DNA of 64,000 bases. Origin: a virus. Made by a program: the position numbers and the translations under genes. Below, one piece after another: positions 2,065 through 63,718 of this stretch. How positions within the stretch are numbered: the first letter of the stretch is position 1; each line of letters begins with the position of its first letter. Location: IMG/VR virus record IMGVR_UViG_3300032322_001011, positions 1 through 64,000 of that record; one strand, 5' to 3'. The notes beneath the pieces are model-generated. The model did no database searches and was not told the origin of the DNA. It was given only the letters and a program-made list of their open reading frames with translations.

Positions 2065-2220
2065 TTAGTAATCGTACTTAGAGAACTTCTTTATCTTCTT
2101 TTTGTCCCTACGGTCATGGGAATCCTTACGATTGTTCTTTCGGAAGTGCAAATCTTCGTAATGTCCTTCTTCCCCGTATTCTTCGTCAAACTGAGAACTA
2201 AGGCTCTTCTTATCCTCCAT
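2065..2220 (-). CDS. small charged protein with N-terminal QF tag (51 aa, not in ORF track)
   Basis: MEDKKSLSSQFDEEY...; overlaps the end of the upstream ORF. Confidence 0.6.
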   Translation of the reverse strand: MEDKKSLSSQFDEEYGEEGHYEDLHFRKNNRKDSHDRRDKKKIKKFSKYDY

Positions 2221-2383
2221 TGGAGTAAAAACCTCTTCCTACCAAGTTAACTGCTGGGGAGAAATAAACAGGGCGTAATTTCTCATTGCAGTCTGGACAA
2301 AAGATTGTTTTCTGCTCATCGTAAATGCTACGGGTTTCCTCGTGCCGATGATCGTTTTCACATTTGTAAGCATATGTTGGCAT
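2210..2383 (-). CDS. FmdB-family zinc-ribbon protein (57 aa, not in ORF track)
   Basis: MPTYAYKCENDH...CPDC...V...GRGFYSNGG matches the FmdB/CxxC_CxxC_SSSS pattern. Confidence 0.8.
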   Translation of the reverse strand: MPTYAYKCENDHRHEETRSIYDEQKTIFCPDCNEKLRPVYFSPAVNLVGRGFYSNGG

Positions 2384-2392
2384 ATTTGAATG

Positions 2393-2827
2393 TTAGCGTA
2401 TCTCGTGCTCTACGGGTAGTTCCCTATTCATGTCAGTGTCATACGCATACGCAAGGCGGTGATGGCCTTCAGTAATCAAAGTTTTTGTTTGGTCTGGGTG
2501 CATCTTTTTCTTTTTAAAATTGCTAATATATTTTTTATAATGAGTCAAAGTTATAGGTTCATTAATCCCATTTTCTGATAAGTCTTCTTCTAGGTTGCGA
2601 TACTTTGGGTTTGCGTAATCTTGATCTGCATAATACTCATTATCGTAAACGTCATCTAGTTTTGAGTTGTATGAATGGGTATCTGCAAATGGCCCATGTT
2701 CTCTTTTAATATCTTCGTCTTCACCAAAGCCAGCGTTAGAGATAGCGTCTTGTGATGAATATTCGGCTAGTTTATGAGCAGGCATAAACATCTGTAGTTG
2801 TTCTCCGTGAAGGTGCTGTTTACCCAC
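2393..2827 (-). CDS. ParB/sulfiredoxin-like domain protein
   Basis: L.EDL.ENGINEPITL ... ITEGHHRL.YA. Confidence 0.7.
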   Translation of the reverse strand: MGKQHLHGEQLQMFMPAHKLAEYSSQDAISNAGFGEDEDIKREHGPFADTHSYNSKLDDVYDNEYYADQDYANPKYRNLEEDLSENGINEPITLTHYKKYISNFKKKKMHPDQTKTLITEGHHRLAYAYDTDMNRELPVEHEIR

Positions 2828-3348
2828 TATTTAAGCCCTTTTAGGTTTCTTCTTGCTCTTATTCTGCCCTTATCACCAAGACCTGGAGCAGGTGCTTTCT
2901 TCCTTCGGCTTCCTTCGTCAAAGAATACTTCACCCTCTCCTTCATGCCCAATTCCAACAATGTGCTCACGAGGTACTAGGTATATATGCAAACGGTTGTT
3001 TTGTCCGTAGTGGTGGATACCAAACTCTTCACTATCTGGGTTACTACCTGTCCATTCAGGAAAAATTGAACCACTGCGTACTTTTGCCCCTTTAGGCACA
3101 TCACCTCTGTGGGTTACCTGAACCTGATCAGGTAGTTTAACCTCATCTCGTAGATGCTGTTGCATATTTTGGTAAGGCTCACCACGCCTATCTCTTACCT
3201 CTTGTAGATACGTTTTAGGCCACTTAGTGGTTCCGTACGACCATTGCTCCATGTCAGCCTCTGCCTCAGTACCTGCCAAATACGGAGCATGCCCCTGCTC
3301 ATAACTGTTGTAAAACTGATCCCAGTTAATACCTTCGTGCGCTGCCAT
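2827..3348 (-). CDS. putative ADP-ribosyltransferase-fold protein with N-terminal QF tag
   Basis: VTHRG, SGS and EGEV in the R-S-E order; MAAHEGINWDQF start. Confidence 0.5.
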   Translation of the reverse strand: MAAHEGINWDQFYNSYEQGHAPYLAGTEAEADMEQWSYGTTKWPKTYLQEVRDRRGEPYQNMQQHLRDEVKLPDQVQVTHRGDVPKGAKVRSGSIFPEWTGSNPDSEEFGIHHYGQNNRLHIYLVPREHIVGIGHEGEGEVFFDEGSRRKKAPAPGLGDKGRIRARRNLKGLK

Positions 3349-3365
3349 AAATCAAGTATAGATTA

Positions 3366-3764
3366 TTAGTCAAAAGTAATAAATGGGTCATCTTCTTTTT
3401 TGACCACACGAACATAAGGAATATCAACATTTGCGTGAATAGCGGCTGCTACACGATGATGACCGTTATACATGAATGGGTTACCTGATTTAAACACCCT
3501 GGCGGATACTTGTACAGGCTCTTGGATGCCTTCTTTACTTACAGATTCTACAAGACTATTAAATGCTTCAGGATCTTTAGATTTGTGGGTTTCAACAACC
3601 TCATCCCAAGTTTGACCACCTTCACGAGGGTGTACCTGTTCTACAAACTGCTGTGGTGAAAGTGCTGGGTGCGCCCTTACTTTAACCCTTGAACCTAAAA
3701 CAGAAGACGTGAACGGCTTATCGGTAGATAAACCTTGTTCATACTTTTTACGTTCTGGGTTCAT
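3366..3764 (-). CDS. ParB/sulfiredoxin-like domain protein
   Basis: LVESVSKEGIQEPVQV ... YNGHHRVAAA. Confidence 0.75.
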   Translation of the reverse strand: MNPERKKYEQGLSTDKPFTSSVLGSRVKVRAHPALSPQQFVEQVHPREGGQTWDEVVETHKSKDPEAFNSLVESVSKEGIQEPVQVSARVFKSGNPFMYNGHHRVAAAIHANVDIPYVRVVKKEDDPFITFD

Positions 3765-3781
3765 AAAACAAGTATAGAGGG

Positions 3782-4393
3782 TTACAAAGAAGTGTCTGGA
3801 GAAATAACCGTGTCAAAGGGGTCAGACACATCTAAGCCCTCTGGATACCAGATTTTAGTGTTTGTAATGTATTTAGGGCGCTCATCTGACAGTTTTACAA
3901 AAGACTCGTCAAACACGAGCATACGGTTTCCAGGCCAAGCACCTACACGACCACAATCTAAACGCACAAAGTTAAAGTGCTTGTGCTGATCAGGTGTTGA
4001 GGAATACATATCACCGTACGGGGCAGCCGTAAACATATACCTACCTGTTTCCCATATCCCTTCTTTCATATATACCTTCACGGATAGTTCAGACAACGCA
4101 CTGTACTCGTGGGTAGTGAAATCTTGCCCATAGCAACTCCATACCTGTAAATGGTCTAAAGGATGTTGGTGTACAGCAGGTGTATGAAAAGTCAAAGCAT
4201 GCAAGGGAACATGTTGCACTAGCGCACCGTTTTCTAAAAGTAGAGATACACCCCACGCCCTATTGGGGATTGCGGATAGACCATAAACTAAACAGGCGGT
4301 GTATTCACCAAACCCTTTTTCAAAGTTGTACAAAAACTCATTCTGGACATTACAGTAAAACGGTTTAGGGATATCTGTAATGTGTGTTGCCAT
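3782..4393 (-). CDS. conserved phage hypothetical protein
   Basis: 203-aa ORF with leaderless promoter; GLSAIPNRA..LLENGA..VPLHAL..LQVWSC pattern. Confidence 0.65.
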   Translation of the reverse strand: MATHITDIPKPFYCNVQNEFLYNFEKGFGEYTACLVYGLSAIPNRAWGVSLLLENGALVQHVPLHALTFHTPAVHQHPLDHLQVWSCYGQDFTTHEYSALSELSVKVYMKEGIWETGRYMFTAAPYGDMYSSTPDQHKHFNFVRLDCGRVGAWPGNRMLVFDESFVKLSDERPKYITNTKIWYPEGLDVSDPFDTVISPDTSL

Positions 4394-4411
4394 AGTGCTG
4401 AGTATAGATGG

Positions 4412-4750
4412 TTAGTCAAGTTCTCTCATTGTTCTGCGCCCAAAGTCAGTAATGGTGCAAACCCGTGCAGGGCGGTTACGGCTAGACATCTTTTCCCCAA
4501 CTTTCTGCACATACCCAGATTTAACCAACGATGTAATAACTCTCCACGGGCTGGATATATCTAGACCTGGAAACATCTGTTTAGCAATTTCATATAAATC
4601 TTCGTCTAATTTTGGTCTTTCCATTTGAAAACGATACGCTTCTAGCAGTTTCCACGGAGCAGTATCTTTTTCAATCGTTAGAAACGGCTCTTGATCGACA
4701 TGCTTTTTTGCATTGAAATGGTGTTGGCAATTTGGACAAGTTGTGTTCAT
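4412..4750 (-). CDS. zinc-ribbon plus winged-HTH DNA-binding protein
   Basis: Start reassigned to ATG 4750 (MNTTCPNCQHHF); C-terminal PWRVITSLVKSGYV..GEK..SRNRPARV..IT..G wHTH. Confidence 0.6.
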   Translation of the reverse strand: MNTTCPNCQHHFNAKKHVDQEPFLTIEKDTAPWKLLEAYRFQMERPKLDEDLYEIAKQMFPGLDISSPWRVITSLVKSGYVQKVGEKMSSRNRPARVCTITDFGRRTMRELD

Positions 4751-4775
4751 AACCTCAGTATATACTTGGAAGATG
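4748..4775. promoter_or_regulatory. symmetric bidirectional leaderless promoter
   Basis: CAT-6nt-AGTATATACT-6nt-ATG: TATACT on both strands, each 6 nt from a start codon. Confidence 0.75.
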
Positions 4776-4946
4776 CCAGCCCAAAACAACCTCAACGGAC
4801 AGCAGTTCCCCATTGAACCAGGAGCGTGGGTTGATGGTGAGCCTGTATCGCTAAAAGAAATCCATCAAGCAGCAGGCTTTACCAAGCGTGACCCTGCATA
4901 CCTTTTAGAGAAGCATAAAGCCAAACAAGCCAAAAGGAAGAAATAA
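4773..4946 (+). CDS. small protein with N-terminal QF tag
   Basis: Start reassigned to ATG 4773: MPAQNNLNGQQF; TAATG overlap with next gene. Confidence 0.7.
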   Translation: MPAQNNLNGQQFPIEPGAWVDGEPVSLKEIHQAAGFTKRDPAYLLEKHKAKQAKRKK

Positions 4947-5413
4947 TGGGTAAAATCGTCTATCACGGCACGTTTAGTGATGAACCACCTCATGTTTATG
5001 GTAACCCTTTTCATACAGGTACGATGTCTGCTGCATATGAACGTATAGACGATGAAATGGATAACAATGGCGCTGGTGGACAATATGAACCAACTTATAA
5101 AATTCATAAATATGAAATCTCTGATAATGCTCCCACTTCCCGTAAGACTTGGGATGACCCAGGTGATTTCTTTGACCACGGTCCAAACCCTGTACCTGAG
5201 TTTAATCAGAAACGAATCTACCCATACAAAAACGAATATGAAGACAAAGGCTCAACTTCCTATGTCATTCCTTCTAACTTTGTAGGAAACCACGTAAAAC
5301 ACCTAGGAATACAATTCCAGCATTTCTCTCAAGGTGGGGACTATGGGCATGAAATTGGTGTAAACGCTATGTCTACTATGGTCGGTGGTAAACCACCATT
5401 TAAGGCTAAGTAA
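4946..5413 (+). CDS. putative ADP-ribosyltransferase-fold protein (H-type)
   Basis: IVYHGT ... FHTGT.SAAYER ... Y.NEYED.GS.SYVI. Confidence 0.5.
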   Translation: MGKIVYHGTFSDEPPHVYGNPFHTGTMSAAYERIDDEMDNNGAGGQYEPTYKIHKYEISDNAPTSRKTWDDPGDFFDHGPNPVPEFNQKRIYPYKNEYEDKGSTSYVIPSNFVGNHVKHLGIQFQHFSQGGDYGHEIGVNAMSTMVGGKPPFKAK

Positions 5414-5940
5414 TGGCTGCACACGAGTCTATAAATCCCTGGGTACTTCGCCAACTAGCAACTCGTTATGAGAAAAAGAATGTTGCTATCAACTGGGATA
5501 ACCCAAACCGCAACGATCCTGAATCAAACCCTGATTTTAGTGATGAATCTGGCGTATGTTACGAATGTTCTGAGGATTTCGTGGAACGCAGCCATCTGGG
5601 TCACACAGGACTTAATCCAAAGCACGTTAAGCAAGTATCGCTAAACAATGATGCTCGTGGGATAGGACATTCGGCTGTAGAGGTAGGAACTACTCACGGC
5701 CCATATGTAGTGGATTTTACGTACAGGCAATACAACAATAAGGCTAAATCAGCCGTTGTTTTGCCCAAAAGAGGATATATACGCAAAATAGAAAAAGACA
5801 ACCCTGAAAACACTACTGAAGCAACAACATACAACAAAATAGGTATTGAAAAGCCTCGTATGGAAACTATACAAAACAACCCAGAAAACTGGAAACCACA
5901 GCAAACACCACCCGAAATGCGACCAAGTAGGAAGAAGTAA
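5413..5940 (+). CDS. papain/transglutaminase-like (Tox-PL-type) protein
   Basis: G.CYECS ... GHSAV ... VVDFTYRQY gives a Cys-His-Asp triad order. Confidence 0.6.
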   Translation: MAAHESINPWVLRQLATRYEKKNVAINWDNPNRNDPESNPDFSDESGVCYECSEDFVERSHLGHTGLNPKHVKQVSLNNDARGIGHSAVEVGTTHGPYVVDFTYRQYNNKAKSAVVLPKRGYIRKIEKDNPENTTEATTYNKIGIEKPRMETIQNNPENWKPQQTPPEMRPSRKK

Positions 5941-5985
5941 TCGCCCTTTACACGGCAAATTTTTTACTTAGCGTATAATTAGACA

Positions 5986-6366
5986 ATGCCAGCCCACGAA
6001 AATCTAGGTGACCAGTTCAAGGTAGTCCATCAGAAACTAGGTGAAGGCGTGTCTGCTGGCAGGGGTTGGCATTCCCTCACGCTTCAAGACCCAAAAAAGG
6101 GTGTAGACCTCGCCCGTGTGTCTTTTGAACACTATAACGATCCAGATATGGAACCATCGTCAAGAATAGACATAGATTACCTAAAAAGCCACGTTGAGGG
6201 TCAAGGTCATGCTCAACGACTTATGGAACATATGTACAACCGCTACCCTAAATCACATATTGACTGGGGTTTGACAATCAACCCAGCATCAACCCATATT
6301 GCCTCAAAGTTTGAAAACAAGTACTACGACAGAACTTCATATCAACCAGAAGAGGATATGGACTAA
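5986..6366 (+). CDS. GNAT-like acetyltransferase with QF tag
   Basis: IDIDYLKS..EGQGHAQRLM motif A. Confidence 0.65.
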   Translation: MPAHENLGDQFKVVHQKLGEGVSAGRGWHSLTLQDPKKGVDLARVSFEHYNDPDMEPSSRIDIDYLKSHVEGQGHAQRLMEHMYNRYPKSHIDWGLTINPASTHIASKFENKYYDRTSYQPEEDMD

Positions 6367-6683
6367 TGCCAGCATACGAGAGTCTTAGTCATCAATTTAC
6401 AGATAAAAAGGGTAAAGAACACACCATCCGTACAACCCCTTTTGGCGATGTTGAAGCCAGGAGTGGTAAAACGGTTACTGGTCGTTTAGGGGTCATGCTT
6501 GACTTTCAGCCTGAACAAGAACGAAAACACATGGTTTTTGGTATTGCTACAAACAAACGGTATCAAAACAGAGGTGTAGCCACAGCCATGTTTAACGCCG
6601 CCGAGTCACACTATGGCCCAATTGACATCGGTCCAACATCTTCTGATGAAGGTGAGAACTGGAAGAAGAAAATGGGTCAATAA
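6366..6683 (+). CDS. GNAT acetyltransferase with QF tag
   Basis: GIATNKRYQNRGVATAM motif A; S.EGENW. Confidence 0.75.
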   Translation: MPAYESLSHQFTDKKGKEHTIRTTPFGDVEARSGKTVTGRLGVMLDFQPEQERKHMVFGIATNKRYQNRGVATAMFNAAESHYGPIDIGPTSSDEGENWKKKMGQ

Positions 6684-7066
6684 TGGCTGCACACAAGAAC
6701 CTAAATGAATACCAATTCCGTTACCGACCCACTGGGGCTGTAAAAGACGAAGATGAAGAGTATTTTACTAGGCAAGGTAAAGAGGTTCCAACGGTGTATG
6801 ACCATAAGGTGACGGTAGTACACAAGCCAACAAAGGCTTTGGTTGGAGAAATGACATGGCCTAACGAGGGACCACTATACGGTATTGCAGTTGACGAGGA
6901 CCACGGGCGAAAAGGTATCGCTACCAACATGGTATTACATGCACAACGGGTATCTAGAGCATCTAAAGGTGCAATACCCCCACCTGAACGTGCTACCAAT
7001 GAAACAGAAGATGGTGAAGCGTGGGCTGACGCAATGGAAAGCAAAAGAATACCTGGTTGGTACTAA
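6683..7066 (+). CDS. GNAT acetyltransferase with QF tag
   Basis: GIAVDEDHGRKGIATNM motif A; TEDGEAW. Confidence 0.75.
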   Translation: MAAHKNLNEYQFRYRPTGAVKDEDEEYFTRQGKEVPTVYDHKVTVVHKPTKALVGEMTWPNEGPLYGIAVDEDHGRKGIATNMVLHAQRVSRASKGAIPPPERATNETEDGEAWADAMESKRIPGWY

Positions 7067-8010
7067 ATTTAGAGCGAAATTTAGGTCTACTTAGGGCGAA
7101 AATGGGTGTGTACCCCCAATTTTTTTGGGGTGGGTCTATCTAGTGGGTGGGTGCTTATTGGCTAGTGGCCCCTCGCCCCCCTCTCAACCCTCACTTGAGA
7201 CTTAAGGGTGGGGGGTATCCCTCTACCTCTACTAGAGGGTTAGACATACAGCCATACTCTATACCTCTACTATAGGGATATACAGTATGCTGCCGAAGTG
7301 GTTTAGGGTTAGGGCAAACCCATATGGGCATTGGGTTTGGGCGTAGTTGAGGGTTTGTATTGCCCTGCACACTGGCTCATGGCATATCGATACCCCAGAG
7401 TGCCGCATTGCTCGAGTGATTACAGGCTCTAGGAGCGTCTAGGAGCGTTTACCCACGTATCGATCCCCATCCAGCGTCTACCACGCTCTACGGGGCTTAC
7501 AGGGGCTTCTCCTGCCCTGCATTTGGGTCTATGGAATGGGCATGAATCGGTATCGGGGACTAGGGGGAGATTTACCCTCACTTCTCCACGTGGACTCATT
7601 GGTATTGGCTCACCAGACACGCTGTAATCGCTTCTCACGCCGCTTCTGGGATCACTCGGTGATCGGTGGCTCTACACACTCCAGAGTGCTCTACGTGCTT
7701 CCCTTCTCTTCCCTCTGGGTGAGTGATGAGTGAATACATCGGGCGATTTGCAGGCCACCAAAAAGACCCCAGTTTCATTGGGCAATTTGTAGTGCTGCTT
7801 TACTCCCAATTTCAGCTCGGAATGGCAATGCCGGCACAGTGCCGTTCTCAATCAATCCCAATTTCATTGATGAATTGCCTGCACCCAACACCCATAACCA
7901 CCTGGCTTCTCCTCTTAGATCGCTTCTCAATGCGTGGTTTTCTCAGTGAATGGTGGGTTTTTGGGTCTTTGGGCGAAAAGCAGCGTTCTGCACGTTTCGC
8001 ACGTGGGCAT
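7067..8010. other. long non-coding gap at convergence of transcription; probable genome end/packaging region
   Basis: No credible ORF; G-tracts, short tandem repeats (CTAGGAGCGT x2), CCCA[AG]TTTCA x3. Confidence 0.45.
7182..7277. repeat. three dyads with 7-nt spacers at exact 38-bp period
   Basis: TCTCAA-ccctcac-TTGAGA, CCCTCTA-cctctac-TAGAGGG, CTCTATA-cctctac-TATAGGG; spacers start at 7188, 7226, 7264. Confidence 0.8.
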
Positions 8011-8043
8011 AAAAAAATCCCCCAGCATTTCTGCTGAGGGATT
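8011..8043 (-). terminator. intrinsic terminator, CAGCA-GAAA-TGCTG core (copy 1)
   Basis: GC stem with GAAA loop followed by T7 on the minus strand. Confidence 0.85.
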
Positions 8044-8070
8044 CTCTTCAGGGGGTCTGATTGATCTGGA

Positions 8071-8262
8071 CTACTTGGTGATCTTCTCCGCATCTGCCGA
8101 ATCTGCTTCCATCCACATATCGAACCCGTGATGATCCAGAAGCAGGGCTTTGGCATTGTCAATCGCTTGATCTTCAGTCTCGGCGGACAGGTGCATACTC
8201 AGCGAGAAGTAGTCCCCGTGAAATTGCACCTTCCACATCGTTTCTTTACGAGCGAGCCTCAC
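8071..8262 (-). CDS. small early hypothetical protein
   Basis: Overlaps the stop of the upstream gene; acidic, V.AE.EDQAI pattern. Confidence 0.55.
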   Translation of the reverse strand: MRLARKETMWKVQFHGDYFSLSMHLSAETEDQAIDNAKALLLDHHGFDMWMEADSADAEKITK

Positions 8263-8618
8263 TTGGATTCCTTTGCGATGTTCTCAGCGATCCAGTCACG
8301 CTTCAGCACTGCTTTGGCGAGATCATTCATCACTCCACGTAGCCCCATGTACTTCCACCACTCGTGCGGATTCTGGGTGAGCAATTCACGCTTGTCATCT
8401 CGGATCATTGTGTCCATCGCATCGTGCCACTGACGTAGTGCATTCCAAGCGGATTGAATCTCCATGTCTTCAATCGCTTCAATAGTGCCGCATTCACTGC
8501 AGATTTCGGTGGTGTTGTCACGGCGTGAGATTGCTCCTGCATACTCACCAGCGTGTTCTCGGTTTGGAATTGGCTCGCCACAGCGAGGGCAATCCTTGAT
8601 TTGATTCTGAACTGACAT
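8259..8618 (-). CDS. zinc-binding early protein
   Basis: CPRCG...AISRRDNTTEICSECG; GGAAGGA RBS. Confidence 0.75.
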   Translation of the reverse strand: MSVQNQIKDCPRCGEPIPNREHAGEYAGAISRRDNTTEICSECGTIEAIEDMEIQSAWNALRQWHDAMDTMIRDDKRELLTQNPHEWWKYMGLRGVMNDLAKAVLKRDWIAENIAKESK

Positions 8619-21553: not shown

Positions 21554-22990
21554 TCAAGCCTCATCCGAAAGATCAAGGATGTCTGCGTACATACTGTCAG
21601 CCTGGTTAGCATTCAAACCACCACCTGTAAGTTGCCTGGTGGCTTCGCCTACTTGAGCGCCAAAGATACGACTAAGTACCCCTGCACCGCCACGTGCTTC
21701 AACCTCAAGACGCATGACATCACGAGTATCTGAAATGTCTTTGAACTTCTCAACTAAAGCGAACAACCGCTCAACCTCATCGGACAATGCTGGGTCAAGA
21801 CCTTGACCTTCCAGTTCTTCGGCAAAGCGAGCGAACAACACTCGGCTCATTTGCATCTCCAATAATGCCCTCATCGCAGCCTGTAACTGATCTTTAGTTT
21901 TGATCTCTACGGGCAACTTGAATCCACAATCAGAATTCTCCTTGAATGCAGGACAACGGCTGGACAAATAACAATGATTGCACTGCCTCAAAAGGTTACT
22001 TTGATACTGCAAAACAGGTGTTGAAAAAGCCTCAGAATTGCCCTCATCCTCAAGTTCTGTAAGGTTTTCAGCAATTTGTGGTGTGATGTTCTGGATACCG
22101 ATAACTGGTAACAATACTTTTTCGTCTTCGTGCCGCTTGTCAGCACCCCTAATCATAATACTTGTACCCCCAGAAGCCACATTTTGGACATTACCAATAT
22201 TTTGCAAATCATTAGGATTTGTACTATTTTCCGATAGACCTATTTCTTGTTCGTCATCGTCATTTGCAGGGTCATAGACCCCAAAAGCACCCTGCTCCCA
22301 CGCTTGCCAAGACTTGATTGCCAACTTTGCAACCTCAGCATTATCGTCTTGGACTATCTGTTCATAGTCAATTCCTAACCGAATAATGTCGGCTCGGTGC
22401 TTCTTTCGGGCAGAATCTTTCTGCTGTGCTGGGTATCGGCGTAGACCGTGACCATCCCATACCTGAGTTTCCCCGTAACGCACAGCCGATGTCCACGACC
22501 CCACGACTACTGAATCCCAAGGTAGTGATTCAATGACATCTGGTTTAGATGACAACCCCACTAACTTGGCATCCCACCTCTGAATGAGGTTACGAATACG
22601 GGAAATGTTTTTACCGTTTACAGCCTTATCGCTGACTGCGGCCCTGCCATGACGTTGGCATAAATACGCCAAACGCTCTAAATCGTCACCATCATTCCAT
22701 AAAGGAATATACCGTTCGTTTAGCCATGCCCCATCATAATCAGGGCGACCAATGACCATTGCAATGTTTTCGTAGTGCTGACGTAGGAAATCATCGTAAC
22801 GAGTGACATCTTCGTCACTTTCTGAAGTATACAAAACGACCTCACCGCCATTGCACATTACAGATAAATCTAGTTCTTTTTTCTTAGGCACAGCCAAATG
22901 GGTGAGGTTTATGGCGTATCTGGTTACCCCAGAAGCGGACAGCAAAGATCGGTGAGAGGACTTTTCGGCATTAGCAAAATAGATTTTCAC
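21554..22990 (-). CDS. TGT/DpdA-like TIM-barrel protein with Cys cluster, apparently lacking catalytic aspartates
   Basis: MKIYFA, YIPLW, KLVGL, PWDSVVVGSW...RYG follow the TGT-like order; CNHC..SRC...C C-terminal cluster. Confidence 0.5.
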   Translation of the reverse strand: MKIYFANAEKSSHRSLLSASGVTRYAINLTHLAVPKKKELDLSVMCNGGEVVLYTSESDEDVTRYDDFLRQHYENIAMVIGRPDYDGAWLNERYIPLWNDGDDLERLAYLCQRHGRAAVSDKAVNGKNISRIRNLIQRWDAKLVGLSSKPDVIESLPWDSVVVGSWTSAVRYGETQVWDGHGLRRYPAQQKDSARKKHRADIIRLGIDYEQIVQDDNAEVAKLAIKSWQAWEQGAFGVYDPANDDDEQEIGLSENSTNPNDLQNIGNVQNVASGGTSIMIRGADKRHEDEKVLLPVIGIQNITPQIAENLTELEDEGNSEAFSTPVLQYQSNLLRQCNHCYLSSRCPAFKENSDCGFKLPVEIKTKDQLQAAMRALLEMQMSRVLFARFAEELEGQGLDPALSDEVERLFALVEKFKDISDTRDVMRLEVEARGGAGVLSRIFGAQVGEATRQLTGGGLNANQADSMYADILDLSDEA

Positions 22991-23469
22991 TCGTCACCTC
23001 CATTAGTGCGGTACAACGACTGTACTTCAAGTTCACGAGTCAGGTCTGTCCAGACCTTTCTTTCCCTAGGCTTATCATTTCGCCATTCTGGGCGTACAAA
23101 GTTGGGCAAGCACATCAAAAGACAAGGAATAGCATCCTGCATCACCAAAGTCACAGTTTCAGGATTGGTGTCTACAAACCAGTCAATTTTTCCGTATACG
23201 GCGTTCAAATCTCGTACACGGTCACGCACATCTGAAGGTTTTCCAGACTTGGCTACCTCAACAGTGGCAAATTTATAACCTTCACGTTTTGCCCACTCTG
23301 TCAAAATCTCAGCGCCAACATCAGTACCCAAAATAATAAGCCTGCCGTTGTACCGTGCAAATAGCGCTTCGTACAGTTTTTGACCATCGGGAATAGGTTG
23401 TCTTGCACCAGGGGAGAACGCTTTGTCAGTATTTGCATACGCTAATACATCAAAAGTAACAACAAGCAT
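22987..23469 (-). CDS. HAD-fold-like protein (degenerate)
   Basis: LVVTFDVLA, PIPDG.KLY, WFVD..P. Confidence 0.5.
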   Translation of the reverse strand: MLVVTFDVLAYANTDKAFSPGARQPIPDGQKLYEALFARYNGRLIILGTDVGAEILTEWAKREGYKFATVEVAKSGKPSDVRDRVRDLNAVYGKIDWFVDTNPETVTLVMQDAIPCLLMCLPNFVRPEWRNDKPRERKVWTDLTRELEVQSLYRTNGGDE

Positions 23470-23927
23470 CAGTCGTACATGCCCATCGCTTTACGTTCTT
23501 TGGTTGCTACGTAACCTGAACCTACTGGGCAGAAATGGCATAGATATTGCCATTGTTCTTTTGGAACACCAGTCTTGCGACCAATCGTCTTAGATTCATC
23601 TTCCCAGTCAATACAACTACCTTTAGGAGCACCGTGGCGTTGGAAGCATTTGAGGGCTTCTACTTTGAGGTCATCACGAACTTCACGAACCTCAATCTCA
23701 TTCTTCATCAATTCTTTTTTGATCCCTGTCTCACCGTCAAGGGCATCATATGTTGCTTGGTCACAACGGAAGATTTGAGACAAGTGTGCTTCAGGGGAAG
23801 GGTTTTGAGCACGAGCAAGATGCATCTTGATAATTTCTTGCAACTCCATGTCATTATCTGCGTTACCGTCATAATCACGCATTTTGTGCATTGTTCCACA
23901 AGAATTGCAAACTAGAAGTCTTGGCAT
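23469..23927 (-). CDS. Cys-rich hypothetical protein
   Basis: C..C, C..H..P...C.D, YLCHFCPV. Confidence 0.7.
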   Translation of the reverse strand: MPRLLVCNSCGTMHKMRDYDGNADNDMELQEIIKMHLARAQNPSPEAHLSQIFRCDQATYDALDGETGIKKELMKNEIEVREVRDDLKVEALKCFQRHGAPKGSCIDWEDESKTIGRKTGVPKEQWQYLCHFCPVGSGYVATKERKAMGMYD

Positions 23928-24992: not shown

Positions 24993-25172
24993 TTACTTAC
25001 CTGCCTTTTTCTTGGTTTGCTTTTTGGATTGACCTGCTTCAGACAATGCTATCGCAATTGCCTGCTTCTTGGAAGTAACCGTAGGGCCTTCTTTAGAACC
25101 TGAATGAAGATCGCCTTTGGCATATTCTTTCATTACTTTGGCAACCTTCTTTGCACTTTTTTTATCACTCAT
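24993..25172 (-). CDS. DUF6496-like basic protein (59 aa, not in track)
   Basis: KVAKVMKEY.KG.LHSGS..GP.VTSKKQAIAIALSEAG. Confidence 0.8.
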   Translation of the reverse strand: MSDKKSAKKVAKVMKEYAKGDLHSGSKEGPTVTSKKQAIAIALSEAGQSKKQTKKKAGK

Positions 25173-25485
25173 TATCAGTGTCCTTAAATGCTTGACCTAA
25201 TGTGTAATGAAAATCTGGATTCATTGCTAAATCCCACCGAACAGTATCATAGTCTACAGTCTTTGTTTGCTTTGGAATATGACCAAAACCAGAACCCAAT
25301 TCGTGAATTGTGGAATCTGGAAATCCCTTCAAAAGATCAAAAGTCTTTTGATGAAACAGTCTTTCATCAATTTGTCTTTTAGCATCACCAAACAACCCTT
25401 GACCAGCAGGGTGAAACTGGCGTTGATTTAGTTGCCGTTCAGCCTTCTTCTTGCGGAAATCCGCCATGTCAACGATGTCACCCAC
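25165..25485 (-). CDS. hypothetical protein with internal QF tag
   Basis: IVDMADFRKKK followed by RQLNQRQF. Confidence 0.6.
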   Translation of the reverse strand: MGDIVDMADFRKKKAERQLNQRQFHPAGQGLFGDAKRQIDERLFHQKTFDLLKGFPDSTIHELGSGFGHIPKQTKTVDYDTVRWDLAMNPDFHYTLGQAFKDTDNE

Positions 25486-26598: not shown

Positions 26599-26922
26599 TT
26601 ATACCCAAAGACTTTGCATTGAGTATCGCCCAGAACCACTGAACTTATCATCGTTCATTTGTGCTCTCTGGAACATCACAGGAGCACCTGAAACCCATGA
26701 ACGGTATTGGGGTGTCCAACGATCCACTGACAAAATGTCCACAATCCCAAGTTCCTGCTTTAAAAACCCACGTGATTGTGGAAATGCTTGCTGTGGGACA
26801 ACAGGGCGAGTAGCACGAATAGTTTCTGGGTCAGAAATAGCAGACTGCAAAGCAATATCGGTAAGCAACTCTTCACGAGACTGCCACGGGCGTGTGCTTC
26901 TGTGGTTATCTACAGTAGGCAT
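26599..26922 (-). CDS. hypothetical protein
   Basis: TRPWQSREE; TAATG overlap. Confidence 0.65.
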   Translation of the reverse strand: MPTVDNHRSTRPWQSREELLTDIALQSAISDPETIRATRPVVPQQAFPQSRGFLKQELGIVDILSVDRWTPQYRSWVSGAPVMFQRAQMNDDKFSGSGRYSMQSLWV

Positions 26923-27188
26923 TAGTGCTCTGGTGGGTAAAAGTTAGGGTCATAACTTGACCAATTTTCAGGTGCTTCAGGATGGTATTGTTCATCATTT
27001 GATTTAGCAACACCATCGTTGCCGTAAGCATCCAAATACGCTTCAAACTCTTCATCATTTTGCGTATGTTTTCTAGCCTGACGTTCACGAGATTCCATTT
27101 GCATTTCTTTTATTTCGTTATGCATGTCCATAGCATCACGCCCAACTTGGCGACCCATGTGATGACGAGTGTCTTGTCCTCTAGGCAT
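26922..27188 (-). CDS. MPRG-tag protein 1
   Basis: MPRGQDTRHHMGRQV. Confidence 0.75.
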   Translation of the reverse strand: MPRGQDTRHHMGRQVGRDAMDMHNEIKEMQMESRERQARKHTQNDEEFEAYLDAYGNDGVAKSNDEQYHPEAPENWSSYDPNFYPPEH

Positions 27189-27496
27189 TATTTGATTGGC
27201 TTTCCTCTAAATGATGGGTTATTGTTTTCATCCCATGAGAATAGCGGTTTCTTTTCAACTCTTCCAGTACCACCCTTGGCTTTATCAATCAAGTTGCGAG
27301 GAGCAATGTCAGACAGACGGGCTTCTTGACCTGTGTACTCAGGTGTGTTTGGATCATCCAAGTCAGGGTTTCCTGGAGGCCCAATCAATGCATCTTTAAT
27401 GCGTGACATCATTGAAGGCTTTGCCTTTTTAGCACGATGTGCATCAAGACTTACGATGCGAGCACCGTGGTGTCGGGTGTCTTCACCTCTAGGCAT
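27188..27496 (-). CDS. MPRG-tag protein 2
   Basis: MPRGEDTRHHGARIV. Confidence 0.75.
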   Translation of the reverse strand: MPRGEDTRHHGARIVSLDAHRAKKAKPSMMSRIKDALIGPPGNPDLDDPNTPEYTGQEARLSDIAPRNLIDKAKGGTGRVEKKPLFSWDENNNPSFRGKPIK

Positions 27497-27702
27497 TATT
27501 GATACCTACTTTCTGGTCCAAGCACTTTACCGACAAAAGAACGCTGAACAGAAGGTTCATCTAGTTCAGAAACATGTTCAGCAATATCTGCTGGGTTGAT
27601 ACTTCCCCACACTGCTGTTTGCTGTTGGATAATACGATCAAGAATGGCTTCTTTGTCAACCCTACGTTTCTCGTGATTACGAGTATCTTCACCTCTAGGC
27701 AT
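27496..27702 (-). CDS. MPRG-tag protein 3
   Basis: MPRGEDTRNHEKRRV. Confidence 0.75.
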   Translation of the reverse strand: MPRGEDTRNHEKRRVDKEAILDRIIQQQTAVWGSINPADIAEHVSELDEPSVQRSFVGKVLGPESRYQ

Positions 27703-27713
27703 AAACTATTCCT

Positions 27714-27992
27714 TTATTGTGGTGTGTTTGACCACGTGTTTGTAATTGGGTCAATTAGGATGTTCCCAGTACCTTTTCGGCGTGGTGCTCCCTTAACATC
27801 ACCAGGATGCCCAATTTCACCTTCTGGTATTTGGTATGACGGGTGGTCACCGCTACCAGGACTTGTAAATTTGTCAGAACCTGATGTCTGGCGATCAATA
27901 AAAGTAGGAAGTCTTTCTGAAGACCTCGCAGCAAACCCTGAACGGTCAACCCTGCGGTTAGGGTGGTTATTTGTGTTTTCTCCTCTAGGCAT
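27714..27992 (-). CDS. MPRG-tag protein 4
   Basis: MPRGENTNNHPNRRV. Confidence 0.75.
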   Translation of the reverse strand: MPRGENTNNHPNRRVDRSGFAARSSERLPTFIDRQTSGSDKFTSPGSGDHPSYQIPEGEIGHPGDVKGAPRRKGTGNILIDPITNTWSNTPQ

Positions 27993-30286
27993 TATGGCTT
28001 CTTTCTACGTGGGTTTTTTGGTTCAGAAGCAGGTGCTGGTGCTGGTGCAGAAGCAGGTGCTGTATTGTTTGTTGTTGGGCGACCTGCACTCTGTGCATTT
28101 TTTGCACGTGGGTGTGAAGGCTGACCAGAACTTGCAGGGCCACCCGTTGAAAGAACGGTTGCTCCCCTGTTTGTTGATGTTGCACGACCAGCAGTGCTCG
28201 CCACTGTTGGGGTAGTGTTAACAGTTCCACCAGTGATGTTTCCAAATGTGGATTCACCAATTACTTGTGGGGCAAAGTTTATGTTTGCGCTGTTATTAAC
28301 ATTGATTCCACCGCCGTTGCCACCACCAAAATCACCACGACCAAGGTTTGTTTGATCACCAAAAGTAACTGGTCCTGAAATGTTATAGAACGAACCAGAA
28401 CGACTTGATGGAGCAGACGGAGCAGGCGCTGAAGAACTTGGACCTGCTGGTGCTGGCATTGCACTTGGTTTTCCACCACCTGATACCGATGGGGGTGTCA
28501 TTGGTGTATTAGTTGCAGGAGTTGGTGTACCTCCAGCACGACCACCTTTTCCACCACCAAAGAACGTACGCATACGACCACCTAAACCTGGTTTTGAGGG
28601 TGAAGCAGGTGATGCAGGAGTTGGTTCTGTTTCCGAACCCCAATCATAGAAGTTCCCATCAGCAGGGCGTGGAGCACTCTCCGAAGTCCGCATTGTTCCG
28701 CCTTCACGAGCAGTACGAATTTGGCGAATACGCTCTGCGTTTGCCTTAGCCTCTGACGCAGTTCCGTAAACAGGTTCACTCGTTCCGCTCTTGTCAGTGT
28801 TAAGAATGAACTTACTGCCACCGCCAGTTGATGCTTTTGGAGTAGCACGTTCTGCTTCATCAGCATCAGAGCCAAAGCGAATTACACCGACCTCATCTCC
28901 GTAGGCATCAGCATCCAGTGCTGCTTCTTCTTTATCCCTAACAGCAGCCATTCCTGCTTCGCTCATTGCTTTTTCTTCTGGTGTCATTGAGTCAAGAAGT
29001 GCGCCGTACTTTTCTCGGTAATAACCTGGCTTGTTTTTGTCAGGTGCAGCAGTCTCAGCAGCAGTTTCTGCCGCAGTTGGCTTACTAACATTTGGAAAGT
29101 TGCGCTTCTTTTTAGTTTCGGCAGGTGCTTCCATTGCAGCATCTATCTCAGCCTGCTTCTGTGCAGTTTTTTCTGGGTCGTTAATATCTGCCATGTACTG
29201 TTCTATTGCGGTCTTCTTTGGTTCTTCTGGTGGTCGTGGCTTCTCACGTTGGGCAGAACGCCCTGTAGCAAGTTCTTCTTCAACTGCCTCTGGTGAACCC
29301 ACGGCAGGAGCGGAAGGCTTCTTTTTACCCTTACCTTTTGCTTTTGGAGCAGGAGCATCTGCTTCACCATCAGCCACTTCTCTAGTCCCACGGAAGTCAG
29401 GATGTGCTTCAATTTCTGCTTGAAGTTTTTCTCTAGCCTTACCAGTTGCTCTGCGAGTGTTTGATTTACGTGCTTTATCAAGCGCTGCTGCGGCTTCTGC
29501 TTCAGTTCCAGTAATGCCAGGCATTCGGCCTGCGGCAAAATCCTTTTCACTTTGTGAAGGAATGTATTCTGATTCGTTTTTCTTTTTCTTAGCCACAGGC
29601 TTCTCCGATGCTGAAGGTAATGCAGGTTCTTCTACTTTACCAGTTTTATTAGAAGTATTGAGAAGTGAATCTCTAGAATTCTCGTATGTTTCTTTTACCT
29701 TTAGTCTGTTTGCTTCTCTTTTTTTAGTTTCTTCTGCACCAGCCTTTGTAGGTTTGTGTTCATACAATGGTGTAGTTGGTGGGGGAGTAGGAAATCCAGT
29801 GCGATAAGAATTAACAGCATTTCCTATCCAGTCTGGGATTTCTCCACCTCTATGATCGTTTTGACCATATAGTTCATGGCCTGGTCCTTCACGAGTATCG
29901 TGTATGTCTAGTCCGTAACTGTAATAGTCATCAGGCCATTGATCAGGATTAACAGGGGTTGTTCGGTGTCCGTGTTCATTGACATTGTATTTTATGAAGT
30001 TACCTTCTTCATCAATTGGACCTGGACCAACACTACCAAGTGTTCCCCATTGGTACGGTGTTACCATTCCTTTTTCTAAAAGATCGGCTCGTCTGTCCCA
30101 TTTTGTTTTAAGCATGTCTTCTTCACCATGCCCTTTTGATTTCCAATATTCATCATGTGATGCACCAGACCTACGATGACGCATACCTAAGAGTTTGTTA
30201 ACTTCTGGTACGGGCATAAGGTCTGAAGGATCAACATCAAACCGTGTAAGGTTCGCTAATGGGTTATCTTGTTTTTTCTTAACCAT
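27992..30286 (-). CDS. large low-complexity, largely disordered protein (764 aa)
   Basis: Ala/Glu/Lys/Pro-rich middle, Ser/Gly/Thr-rich C-terminus. Confidence 0.8.
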   Translation of the reverse strand: MVKKKQDNPLANLTRFDVDPSDLMPVPEVNKLLGMRHRRSGASHDEYWKSKGHGEEDMLKTKWDRRADLLEKGMVTPYQWGTLGSVGPGPIDEEGNFIKYNVNEHGHRTTPVNPDQWPDDYYSYGLDIHDTREGPGHELYGQNDHRGGEIPDWIGNAVNSYRTGFPTPPPTTPLYEHKPTKAGAEETKKREANRLKVKETYENSRDSLLNTSNKTGKVEEPALPSASEKPVAKKKKNESEYIPSQSEKDFAAGRMPGITGTEAEAAAALDKARKSNTRRATGKAREKLQAEIEAHPDFRGTREVADGEADAPAPKAKGKGKKKPSAPAVGSPEAVEEELATGRSAQREKPRPPEEPKKTAIEQYMADINDPEKTAQKQAEIDAAMEAPAETKKKRNFPNVSKPTAAETAAETAAPDKNKPGYYREKYGALLDSMTPEEKAMSEAGMAAVRDKEEAALDADAYGDEVGVIRFGSDADEAERATPKASTGGGSKFILNTDKSGTSEPVYGTASEAKANAERIRQIRTAREGGTMRTSESAPRPADGNFYDWGSETEPTPASPASPSKPGLGGRMRTFFGGGKGGRAGGTPTPATNTPMTPPSVSGGGKPSAMPAPAGPSSSAPAPSAPSSRSGSFYNISGPVTFGDQTNLGRGDFGGGNGGGINVNNSANINFAPQVIGESTFGNITGGTVNTTPTVASTAGRATSTNRGATVLSTGGPASSGQPSHPRAKNAQSAGRPTTNNTAPASAPAPAPASEPKNPRRKKP

Positions 30287-30294
30287 ATACAGCC

Positions 30295-30909
30295 TTAGTC
30301 AAATAAAGATGGTTGTTGAAATACAGGAAATTGTTGAGCAGAAATATGAGTTTTAGCGTTTGCTACAGAGTTATCACTTATGGATTTTGTTACTGGTCCA
30401 TATTTTTTAGATCCTTCAAGTTCTTCTTTTGGCTTTAACAAATCACCTGCTGGTTCATACGTTCCAGGAGATGTTTCTTTAAAGTTCCATTCACCATTCC
30501 CACGCATTCCCCACCAACTACGCATACCGTGTGGTTTAAGTTGCTTTATGATTTCAGCACCTTTGCGCTCTGCCATACTTTCAAAATCTGAAAAAGGAAC
30601 ACCATTTTCTTTGTGCATCCTTGTTGCCATATCTTCTAAATGAAGTTGGTTTTCACGGTGAGTGCTGTATTTTTCCCAAAAGTCATCGTCTGAACCATCA
30701 CCAATAAATGCGCTATTTGATTTACTGACTGCTTCCATTGCATTTTTATACTCAGGATTAACTTTGCTAAATGCTTGATCCCGTAATTCAGTTGCCAACC
30801 ATAGTTTGTGGCTTTTACCCCAAGAATCTTCTTGTTCTTGTGTTTTTGAAGGAGTCCAATATGCGGCTTCGCCAGTACCCTTTTTAGACCGTTTTTTCTT
30901 TTCAGCCAT
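30295..30909 (-). CDS. hypothetical protein with C-terminal QF tag
   Basis: Ends ...AKTHISAQQFPVFQQPSLFD. Confidence 0.7.
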   Translation of the reverse strand: MAEKKKRSKKGTGEAAYWTPSKTQEQEDSWGKSHKLWLATELRDQAFSKVNPEYKNAMEAVSKSNSAFIGDGSDDDFWEKYSTHRENQLHLEDMATRMHKENGVPFSDFESMAERKGAEIIKQLKPHGMRSWWGMRGNGEWNFKETSPGTYEPAGDLLKPKEELEGSKKYGPVTKSISDNSVANAKTHISAQQFPVFQQPSLFD

Positions 30910-30912
30910 TAT

Positions 30913-31413
30913 TTATCTCCAAGAAGGGCGAAGCGATTGGAGTTTGGCACGGCGTTCAGCGTCAATATAGTCTTGATTAGGTTGGTCAATAACCCGTGGG
31001 ATTCCTTTAGGACCAACTTTTCCGTCATTAGTCAATTGTACAGGCACTGCGCCTGGGGGTGCGAATTTCTGACCTCGTGACTCATGGGCGATCCCAGTCC
31101 AAAGATTGAACTCGTTAGGCCATAGGTAATCGCCTTGGTTAATACGCTCACCTTTGTGGACACCACGAGAATATTGACGGGCGTTATTGCGACTAAGCGT
31201 TCCAAGAATCTTGTCTTGTCGGCGGTTAGACGACATTGTTCCAAGGTATCCGTCTGGATACGTAGTATCTGAGATAGTCCGATAACCAGCAAGTTGATAA
31301 TCCTTGTTGTTACGGAAAACAGGAGCAGGACCAAATTGGTTTTGGGTTGCACCACCAGAAGCCTCAGATGGGCCTTGCCAATGGTTAAACGAGGTCTGCG
31401 AAGACCCAGCCAT
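30913..31413 (-). CDS. conserved phage hypothetical protein
   Basis: YPDGYLGT...RRQDK...Y.RGVHKGERI...DY.WP. Confidence 0.75.
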   Translation of the reverse strand: MAGSSQTSFNHWQGPSEASGGATQNQFGPAPVFRNNKDYQLAGYRTISDTTYPDGYLGTMSSNRRQDKILGTLSRNNARQYSRGVHKGERINQGDYLWPNEFNLWTGIAHESRGQKFAPPGAVPVQLTNDGKVGPKGIPRVIDQPNQDYIDAERRAKLQSLRPSWR

Positions 31414-31625
31414 TAGTTGTACCAGCCGTTCCTGTACCTATTTTCACGAGACTCTTCATATGATTCTTGATACTCAAAAGGCTTTCTAGGTGGCTGCTCG
31501 TTATCGCCATACCCACCAGTCTTAGTTCCTGGTTTCTTAGGTGGAGTCGTACCACTACCACCAGTAGAAGTTTGTGGACCTACTTGGCGCTTAGGGTGAT
31601 TGCGAGTATCTTGTCCTTTAGGCAT
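31413..31625 (-). CDS. MPRG-tag protein 5
   Basis: MPKGQDTRNHPKRQV. Confidence 0.75.
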   Translation of the reverse strand: MPKGQDTRNHPKRQVGPQTSTGGSGTTPPKKPGTKTGGYGDNEQPPRKPFEYQESYEESRENRYRNGWYN

Positions 31626-62906: not shown

Positions 62907-63074
62907 CTATTGATCCGCAGAGCCTGTGCCAGGAACTGTCTTCTGCAAGTCTTGACCAATCGCAGGTTGTTGTTCACGAAAACGTGGAATGTGAACTCTA
63001 CGAATTTTTGTAATGTCTAATACAGAACCAGCAGGTTTAGGTAACTCTGATACGTAAGGCTCTCTTTCAGCCAT
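62907..63074 (-). CDS. small hypothetical protein (55 aa, not in track)
   Basis: MAEREPYVSELPKP...; TAATG overlap. Confidence 0.55.
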   Translation of the reverse strand: MAEREPYVSELPKPAGSVLDITKIRRVHIPRFREQQPAIGQDLQKTVPGTGSADQ

Positions 63075-63718
63075 TAGATACCTGCAAACAAAAATGGGTG
63101 AAGTGGATCTTCACGTACTCCTTCATACTTAGCAAGGTTTTGCCAAGCGCTATCTACGTATACGTATAACGATGATTGTTCAGTTGCAGGTGCTGTACCT
63201 GTACGAATGTACAAGTCACCTTGATCTGCTGCTTCAGATGGGATACCAGTACCAGTTCTATGTGCCATGTTTAAGAACATGCGCTTATCAACAACACTCA
63301 ATGTATTAAGTGTTAAACCAGACTTCCTGTAGATTGCATACAAAGGAAGTTGGCTAGATGAAAGTGTTGGGAAGATTGGGTTAGTTGAACTAGCCGTTCC
63401 TTTAACTACACCATATTGGAAAGTGTTTGCATCAATACGGGTTACAACAAGTATGTCAAATCTTGCATCTGCTTCAGGGGCATCAAAAACTACGGTGCTT
63501 GCTGACACATACCCGTAATGATTATTTACATAAACATATGAAGCAGTTAACGCAGCAGAACCGTTGTCTGCTGAATAGACAGTAATGTCTGCACCAGAAA
63601 GTACACCGTAGTTGTGATTACCAAGGATTTTAAAATCAAGAGAATCTGGTTCTGCTTGATCAAGGCTCTGGATTGTTACTCCGTACTCGCTTGCATTAGG
63701 TACTGTAAATCCAGCCAT
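63074..63718 (-). CDS. virion structural protein
   Basis: GVLSG, RFDILV, G.G.P...GDLYI, HPFLFAG. Confidence 0.6.
   Translation of the reverse strand: MAGFTVPNASEYGVTIQSLDQAEPDSLDFKILGNHNYGVLSGADITVYSADNGSAALTASYVYVNNHYGYVSASTVVFDAPEADARFDILVVTRIDANTFQYGVVKGTASSTNPIFPTLSSSQLPLYAIYRKSGLTLNTLSVVDKRMFLNMAHRTGTGIPSEAADQGDLYIRTGTAPATEQSSLYVYVDSAWQNLAKYEGVREDPLHPFLFAGI

Follow-up and report, generated by a model that had tools for sequence, protein, structure and literature searches.

The internal proteins IPI–III of bacteriophage T4 carry a capsid-targeting sequence (CTS), which binds the scaffolding core and is removed by the prohead protease gp21, and T-even phages have variable internal proteins that likewise bear a CTS (PMC3012670, PMC9026906). 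For the phage polyvalent proteins and the solo DdrB-like ParB, ADP-ribosyltransferase (ART) and GNAT head proteins, packaging and injection are known or have been argued (Iyer et al. 2017, PMC5512222). MuF-toxin fusions have been found in temperate phages (PMC5576092), and cargo-loading peptides are known from the encapsulins (PMC8346489, PMC11664910). Here we analyse positions 1 to 64,000 of the IMG/VR virus record IMGVR_UViG_3300032322_001011, referred to below as the window, which makes up the first 64 kb of a viral contig of 84.7 kb. Several small genes at positions 2065–7066 of the window encode proteins with unrelated bodies that open with the same short peptide, here called the tag. The tag is selected as a peptide and not as an RNA or DNA element. 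It is portable, being present on about 35–40 unrelated cargo families that are exchanged as gene cassettes among close relatives. We propose, at a probability of about one half, that the tag is a label for loading into the phage head and that it is read by a component of the procapsid.

The likeness to the T4 CTS is one of design, and no sequence relationship is claimed. In both cases a short (10–19 aa), strictly N-terminal peptide is shared by unrelated, fast-turning-over anti-host proteins, with a constant address and a variable cargo. The two systems differ in that no prohead protease was found here that could remove the tag in the manner of gp21. The cargo also consists mostly of enzymes (ART, GNAT, ParB-like and Cys-His-Asp proteins), whereas that of T4 consists of small basic inhibitors, and packaging is in the present case proposed. 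With the polyvalent proteins the tagged proteins have in common the repertoire of ART, GNAT, ParB-like and peptidase folds, matched here at the level of ParB-like proteins, and they would also have in common the delivery of several activities together with the DNA. The likeness extends to gene position in the high-GC relatives, where the tagged genes adjoin the portal and head genes, whereas those of the window form a separate island by the tail-fibre genes. The polyvalent and MuF proteins are covalent multidomain proteins or fusions to a MuF head domain, whereas here separate proteins of 51–212 aa are equipped with a 12-residue peptide. As in the encapsulin systems, a short, terminal and uncleaved peptide would direct diverse enzymes into a shell of the HK97 fold; the encapsulin peptides, however, are usually C-terminal, are unrelated in sequence, and serve cellular compartments and not virions.

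Results and Discussion

In the window the tag follows the pattern M-[AP]-A-[HQY]-[EKN]-x-[LI]-[NSG]-x(1-2)-Q-F, and the general consensus comprises 12 residues, M-[AP]-A-[HKST]-[ED]-x-[LI]-[NSH]-x-x-[QL]-[FL]. Inspection of the open reading frames (ORFs) and their positions showed that six genes between 2827 and 7066, on both strands, open with the tag exactly at the ATG. The strong N-terminal copies reported in the initial annotation (3348 on the minus strand; 4773, 5413, 5986, 6366 and 6683 on the plus strand) were thus all recovered where they had been placed, each on an ATG. Two further genes, both on the minus strand, show degenerate forms: MGKQHLHGEQL with a GTG start at 2827, and MEDKKSLSSQF at 2220. 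The window copy of the 2393–2827 family reaches only 3.5 bits with the tag hidden Markov model (HMM); its relatives have the canonical starts MAAHEHLNKNQLRMFM or MAKEHLQGEQLEMFM. In the tag of the 5413–5940 gene the QF is lost in the window, and relatives carry ...NPEQV or PAQL.

The internal and weaker copies listed in the initial annotation did not hold. The internal RAHPALSPQQF (3366–3764) gives 1.6 bits with the tag HMM (E 46), and the sole recovered homologue, in L021, is untagged. The C-terminal KTHISAQQF (30295–30909) gives 1.1 bits (E 70), KHLGIQF (4946–5413) is not kept in the homologue, and RQLNQRQF (25165–25485) gives no match of 4 or more with the position-specific scoring matrix (PSSM) described below. 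The 204-aa protein encoded at 30295–30909 terminates in ...AKTHISAQQFPVFQQPSLFD, and its extreme C-terminal Q-x-S-L-F resembles a bacterial beta-clamp-binding motif.

The PSSM was built from the tag copies, and every residue in the six frames of the genome and of 65 related loci was scored with it. There are 146 matches of at least 15, of which 144 coincide with an ATG, GTG or TTG start codon. In the genome 446 ORFs are 50 aa or longer, and five of them start with a match of this strength, whereas 0.001 is expected from 1000 rounds of shuffling the N-termini. Two of the checks that had been suggested for the motif came out in its favour: it is far commoner than in shuffled N-termini, and the scan of related phage genomes with a motif model found it enriched at the termini of diverse proteins.

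Between unrelated cargo families, residues 2–12 of the tag are 40% identical, compared with 6.5% for residues 14–24 of the same proteins. In divergent families the tags are 47–53% identical and the bodies 30–34%. Gln11 is conserved in at least 90% of the copies. The synonymous codons are scattered: Ala3 is encoded by GCA, GCT, GCC and GCG, Leu7 by codons of the CTN and TTA families, and Gln11 by CAG in 30 and CAA in 26 cases. Codons at shared residues agree in 43.6% of cases within a genome and in 41.9% between genomes. The scatter of synonymous codons, together with the lack of codon homogenisation within genomes, indicates that selection acts on the peptide; it rules out an RNA or DNA element as well as gene conversion as the keeper of the likeness among tags. 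Readings of the tag as a beta-clamp motif, as an ATCUN metal site or as HExxH were dropped, since H4 is replaced by K, S, T or R and the sequence after the QF is unconserved. An amphipathic helix is unsupported in both AlphaFold2 (AF2) monomer models, those of the proteins encoded at 2827–3348 and 5413–5940.

Relatives were collected by three routes: around the gene at 3782–4393, with a degenerate DNA pattern in IMG/VR, and with the same pattern in metagenomes. Among the matches listed there are at least about 170 distinct tagged proteins of 51–212 aa (median 126 aa), all of the single-domain type. They fall into clusters unrelated by BLAST, 30 in the IMG/VR loci and at least about 35–41 when the metagenomes are included, of which a few singletons may be due to chance. 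Up to ~11 consecutive tagged genes are present on some contigs, and the GC content of the tag-bearing contigs ranges from 37% to 67%. The set of tagged genes differs between the window and contigs whose flanks match it at 80–97% identity. The homology blocks between relatives stop within ~25 nt of the tag start codons, and in L047 an inserted pair of genes is bordered by the same 18-nt segment of the tag. The sequence L-[NS]-x-x-[QL]-F leads straight into the catalytic HG[ST] in more than 100 Arr-like homologues, and shortened forms without MAAHE, such as MANLNPKQFFHGT and MPALSRQFHGT, retain it; this set is biased toward tagged proteins because the query profile and the search words contained the tag. 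The tag may therefore have begun as the N-terminus of the Arr-like family itself, an origin that is supported in part.

The contig encodes a myovirus tail, DNA polymerase A and a DnaB-like helicase in the window, and the major capsid protein (MCP), scaffold, portal and TerL beyond it. The presence of WhiB is used as a criterion for actinophages (PMC6802176), and since two WhiB genes are found on the contig, it is assigned to a phage of Actinobacteria. The high-GC tag-bearing contigs share with this phage the MCP (59–65% identity), the portal (50–56%) and the scaffold (33–38%), and a single capsid lineage, spanning 43–67% GC, was found wherever tag-bearing DNA had a capsid gene in reach. Among the data searched, the tag is confined to uncultured actinobacterial myoviruses. 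A scan of cellular genomes with the DNA pattern (596 Gb, 185,579 species) gave 94 matches, about the number of a rough chance estimate, and the tag was not found as a protein start; nearly all of the strong-scoring matches are internal methionines of long ORFs or lie in antisense frames. Mimicry of a host N-terminus is thereby ruled out. The cultured phages of the capsid lineage are the Streptomyces phages BRock, Alone3, GiJojo and pSt2308 and the Bacillus phage BCD7. A full tag HMM scan of Borockvirus BRock revealed no tag, and the other four gave no match to the degenerate start pattern, so the capsid does not depend on the tag. A tblastn search for cultured carriers with two of the cargo proteins gave no match. 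The initial annotation had called the motif undescribed, and a literal search of the scientific literature for six variants of the tag likewise returned no match. The phrog_3704 gene at 3782–4393 is 51–99% identical across 36 viral contigs and has no Pfam match; it was rejected as a partner of the tag because it occurs also in tag-less phages.

The position of the tagged genes differs between the relatives. In the window and in the low-GC relatives they are grouped in an island that has the replication block on one side and the tail-fibre genes on the other. In the high-GC relatives they lie within the TerL–portal–scaffold–MCP–neck block. In G001 the portal gene overlaps at its start with two tagged genes, and two more are found between neck-gene homologues. 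In L044 one tagged gene stands between portal and scaffold and one straight after the MCP gene; L049 has one that overlaps the portal gene at its start and, behind the portal gene, a tagged ART; and in L059 one abuts the portal gene. The tagged genes of L052 and L060 are placed between p133 and portal, and those of L209 between or beside neck-gene homologues, with a similar position in L194.

In the island of the window, TATACT or TATAAT is found 5–7 nt upstream of six starts, the ATGs at 3348, 3764, 4393, 4750, 4773 and 5986. TATACT precedes the ATG at 3348 by 7 nt and TATAAT that at 5986 by 6 nt. The palindrome AGTATATACT appears to serve two divergent genes, whose ATGs, 4773 on the plus and 4750 on the minus strand, each lie 7 nt downstream of it and are 23 nt apart. 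The distance of 5–7 nt between these elements and the start codons implies leaderless mRNAs. The starts of the island appear to follow the leaderless actinobacterial pattern with a host-type −10 element, which may mean early expression. A scan with the promoter consensus was uninformative (13 found, 12.1 expected). The tagged operon on the plus strand and the block on the minus strand converge, leaving between their ends a stretch of ~1 kb (7066–8071) that has no convincing ORF and a GC content above that of its surroundings; a search of 6900–8300 against Rfam gave no family at threshold.

A search for prohead proteases of the S77, S78 and ClpP families gave no match in the 89%-complete genome, the S77 search being one without a positive control. 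The head module contains an MCP without a delta domain and a separate scaffold. Given these three features, the tag system is not a T4 CTS in its mechanism. Outside the window and just upstream of the portal gene, at G000 68028–68660 (L160:4028–4660), an HslV/proteasome-like peptidase (phrog_1040; Pfam Proteasome weak) is encoded together with a metallophosphoesterase. The HslV-like peptidase is missing from the head blocks of relatives.

The scaffold of BRock, gp148 (L181 23516–24325), contains the internal segments AAKDDIAPQF and AATESIAQQF. The first of them lies within the most conserved segment of the scaffold, and D-x-I-x-P-E-L-x-D-F is common to all scaffolds examined. That the tag is a copy of a scaffold segment is unsupported, as the tag HMM gives a non-significant ~0 bits for the BRock scaffold stretches. 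The genes common to three tag-bearing genomes and undetected in BRock include those at 23469–23927, 26599–26922 and 63074–63718, in a comparison made with one tag-less genome and at low sensitivity. The first encodes a Cys-rich protein of 152 aa and in G002 stands directly beside a tagged gene; the second encodes a protein of 107 aa. These two are regarded as weak candidates for the tag reader.

We propose that the tag is a portable short linear motif by which a changeable set of enzymes and charged peptides would be marked for a single shared partner. This partner would be a component of the assembling procapsid, namely the scaffold, the portal or the inner face of the capsid. Enclosed in the head, the tagged proteins would enter the host together with the DNA; they would correspond to the injected polyvalent proteins and MuF-toxin fusions of other phages, but as single domains without a covalent link. 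Since no prohead protease was found, the cargo probably keeps its tag. A procapsid component is favoured as the reader because of the head-operon context, the cargo repertoire, the single capsid lineage where it could be checked, and the T4 precedent. The initial annotation had described a portable zip-code that loads an arsenal of enzymes into the head; its portability and its unrelated cargo stand, and for head loading the gene context gives circumstantial support at the even odds stated above. It is tentatively suggested, as the weaker of the two propositions, that the tag is a protease-independent cargo-loading peptide by which this phage lineage packages and injects interchangeable enzymes, new effectors being recruited by cassette exchange at the tag.

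Several observations weigh against head loading. All tag-bearing phages are uncultured, and their packaging of the tagged proteins is a prediction. The five cultured relatives of the same capsid lineage, with MCPs 46–62% identical, are without the tag. The tagged genes of the window stand in an accessory island, where TATACT or TATAAT precedes the ATGs by 5–7 nt. No significant tag-like segment was detected in the scaffold, portal or MCP with the tag HMM, the two AF2 models show no consistent structure of the tag, and one family member, encoded at 4946–5413, has lost the first half of it.

Some of these points would fit a reader inside the infected cell. The tag would then dock the enzymes on a hub of the host, such as RNA polymerase, the ribosome, a chaperone or the adaptor of a Clp-type protease, for targeting or for timed removal of early takeover proteins. 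The host-type −10 elements in front of the six island ATGs, which suggest leaderless transcripts of the host polymerase, the divergent transcription of the island next to the replication/early block, and the tag-less cultured relatives with the same capsid agree with such a reader, and a hub present throughout the Actinobacteria would explain the conservation across hosts of 43% to 67% GC. We nevertheless consider it rather unlikely, as the tagged genes of the high-GC phages stand among head and neck genes, with which their translation is coupled. The tag also occurs in one capsid lineage wherever the capsid gene is in reach and not across unrelated actinophages, and its absence from the starts of cellular proteins in the 185,579 species scanned means that no host N-terminus is imitated. 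The tag could also be an evolutionary by-product, an Arr-like N-terminus copied by cassette recombination at similar 5′ ends and kept for generic reasons (leaderless initiation, removal of Met, stability) with no specific reader. This explanation draws on the Arr-like L-[NS]-x-x-[QL]-F that runs into HG[ST] and is kept in the shortened forms (in the biased homologue set), on the breaks of homology close to the tag starts and on the 18-nt tag segment flanking the L047 insertion. The breaks may, however, be plain gene boundaries from which BLAST extends into the similar tag. The scattered and unhomogenised synonymous sites indicate that exchange at the DNA level does not maintain the tag, and the retention of 12 residues on GNAT, ParB-like and Cys-His-Asp bodies that have diverged to 25–34% identity exceeds what generic initiation needs. 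A pure by-product is for these reasons unlikely, and even a true account of the origin would leave room for a reader.

Far less probable than any of these is that the tag serves as the substrate of an enzyme of the island, either of the Cys-His-Asp protein acting on Gln11 or of a RimI-like GNAT that acetylates the Ala or Pro after removal of Met, so that the tagged set would be modified or cross-linked. The strong conservation of Gln11 would be accounted for in this way, the nearest folds of the 5413–5940 protein are glutamine-directed (SseI, protein glutaminase, PMT, OspI and transglutaminases, Z 5–7.8), and the GNATs form the largest cargo family. The Cys-His-Asp family, however, has no homologue in the tag-bearing G001 and G002, the enzyme itself carries the tag, and the fold matches remain below Z 8. 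Loading into the head by a procapsid component is thus retained as the preferred explanation.

The features of the tag region are collected in Table 1. The tagged bodies named in the initial annotation could in most cases be supported: three GNATs, the ParB-like proteins, the ART-like protein at 2827–3348 and the papain-like protein at 5413–5940. The second ‘ART’, at 4946–5413, is untagged. It aligns with the tagged L021:3737–4237 protein (BLASTP E 8e-13) from residue 7 of the latter. For the GNATs at 6366 and 6683 the Pfam matches are near or below the cut-off, and the protein at 5986 has a weak YunG-like match in addition to a GNAT-like motif. The 6366–6683 gene has stop/start overlaps with the adjoining genes, and in the 20 members of the 6683–7066 family the tag is retained in relatives from 43% to 65% GC. 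Other cargo includes charged peptides of 50–60 aa.

The motifs HRG, SGS and GEGE are invariant in 15 homologues of the 2827–3348 family. The AF2 model of this protein has a pLDDT (predicted local distance difference test) of 76, and its top Foldseek matches, ART2.2, Vis and ExoT/S, are weak (E 0.1–1); the model thus allows a weak assignment as an R-S-E ADP-ribosyltransferase-like protein. In the 5413–5940 protein C49, H86 and D101 are invariant, the core of the AF2 model is confident and the order of secondary-structure elements agrees. VIA-align matched it to SseI (Z 7.8), protein glutaminase (7.5), LapG (7.0) and PMT (6.7); all of the best fold matches belong to the Cys-His-Asp superfamily, yet Z is 7.8 at most and the Foldseek E values are 0.18 or higher. 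Sequence searches of the PDB with the 173-aa and 175-aa families gave no useful match. In the Arr-like family, in which FHG[ST] directly follows the tag, the profile matches the rifampin ADP-ribosyltransferase Arr (PDB 2HW2/9IAF) with E 9e-4 over 74 aligned residues. The motifs HG[ST], Y-x-[ST] and an acidic third motif (VEP) align to those of Arr, as expected of the H-Y-E class, and Pfam PF12120 is precomputed for several of the homologues. The largest ART cargo family is thus Arr-like, and its HGT motif comes directly after the second half of the tag. The alignment, however, begins at residue 16 of Arr (PDB 2HW2) and leaves the tag itself unaligned, and the tag is also found on folds other than ART.

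Table 1. Genes and other features of the tag region in the window
Position	Strand	Feature	Evidence and remarks
2065–2220	−	Highly charged 51-aa peptide with the weak tag variant MEDKKSLSSQF	PSSM 14.3; under the tag HMM reporting level; borderline member
2393–2827	−	ParB/Srx-like protein of 144 aa starting with GTG; degenerate tag, shorter by one residue, MGKQHLHGEQLQMF	GHHR motif
2827–3348	−	R-S-ExE-type ADP-ribosyltransferase-like protein of 173 aa with the canonical tag MAAHEGINWDQF	Conserved motifs, weak fold matches
3366–3764	−	ParB-like protein, 132 aa, within the island	phrog_4715, E 2e-6; GHHR motif
3782–4393	−	Untagged conserved passenger gene, phrog_3704 (annotated ‘ferredoxin’)	Anchor for fetching relatives
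4750–4773	.	Divergent compact start region, palindromic −10-like AGTATATACT	Putative promoter
4773–4946	+	Tagged 57-aa peptide with basic C-terminus, MPAQNNLNGQQF	Kept as an ORF of 54–58 aa in L002 and L047
4946–5413	+	ART-like protein, 155 aa (MGKIVYHGT...), truncated tag	Begins at tag position 7 of the tagged homologue
5413–5940	+	Putative Cys-His-Asp transglutaminase/papain-like enzyme, 175 aa, tag MAAHESINPW	Invariant triad, fold matches
5986–6366	+	GNAT-like (YunG-like) protein of 126 aa with the short-register tag MPAHENLGDQF	Pfam PF24591, E 1.4e-3, under cut-off; tag HMM 17.8 bits
6366–6683	+	GNAT acetyltransferase, 105 aa, tag MPAYESLSHQF	PF00583, E 4.4e-4, 20.9 bits (cut-off 20.7)
6683–7066	+	GNAT acetyltransferase, 127 aa, tag MAAHKNLNEYQF	PF00583, E 9.5e-4, slightly under cut-off

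Two further observations were made outside the island. A second N-terminal tag, MPRG[EQ][DN]T[RN][HN]H..., is present on five small low-complexity proteins at 26922–31625 of the window, with ORF starts at 27188, 27496, 27702, 27992 and 31625, all on the minus strand. Starts resembling it (MARGINTA..., MMARGLNTAYHPNRQV...) stand beside genes with the first tag, near the portal gene, in G001 (~40.4–40.9 kb) and G002 (22959–23690). The gene at 21554–22990 encodes a 478-aa protein similar to queuine tRNA-ribosyltransferases (phrog_887, E 6e-32), which is conserved in G001, G002 and BRock and suggests a 7-deazaguanine modification of the DNA.

Conclusion

Should the tag prove to be a signal for head loading, it would be the first such system outside the T4-like phages, one that is free of proteolysis, and it would represent the phage counterpart of encapsulin cargo loading. 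It would also provide a sequence rule for effectors, as any small ORF that opens with the tag would be a candidate, and a 12-residue handle for loading proteins into phage particles for delivery to Streptomyces or mycobacteria-like hosts. Even with a host factor as the reader, the tag defines a co-regulated set of ~40 uncharacterised protein families. Head loading, if true, would account for the delivery of host-takeover or anti-defence enzymes at injection by phages of the most abundant Actinobacteria of fresh water and soil.

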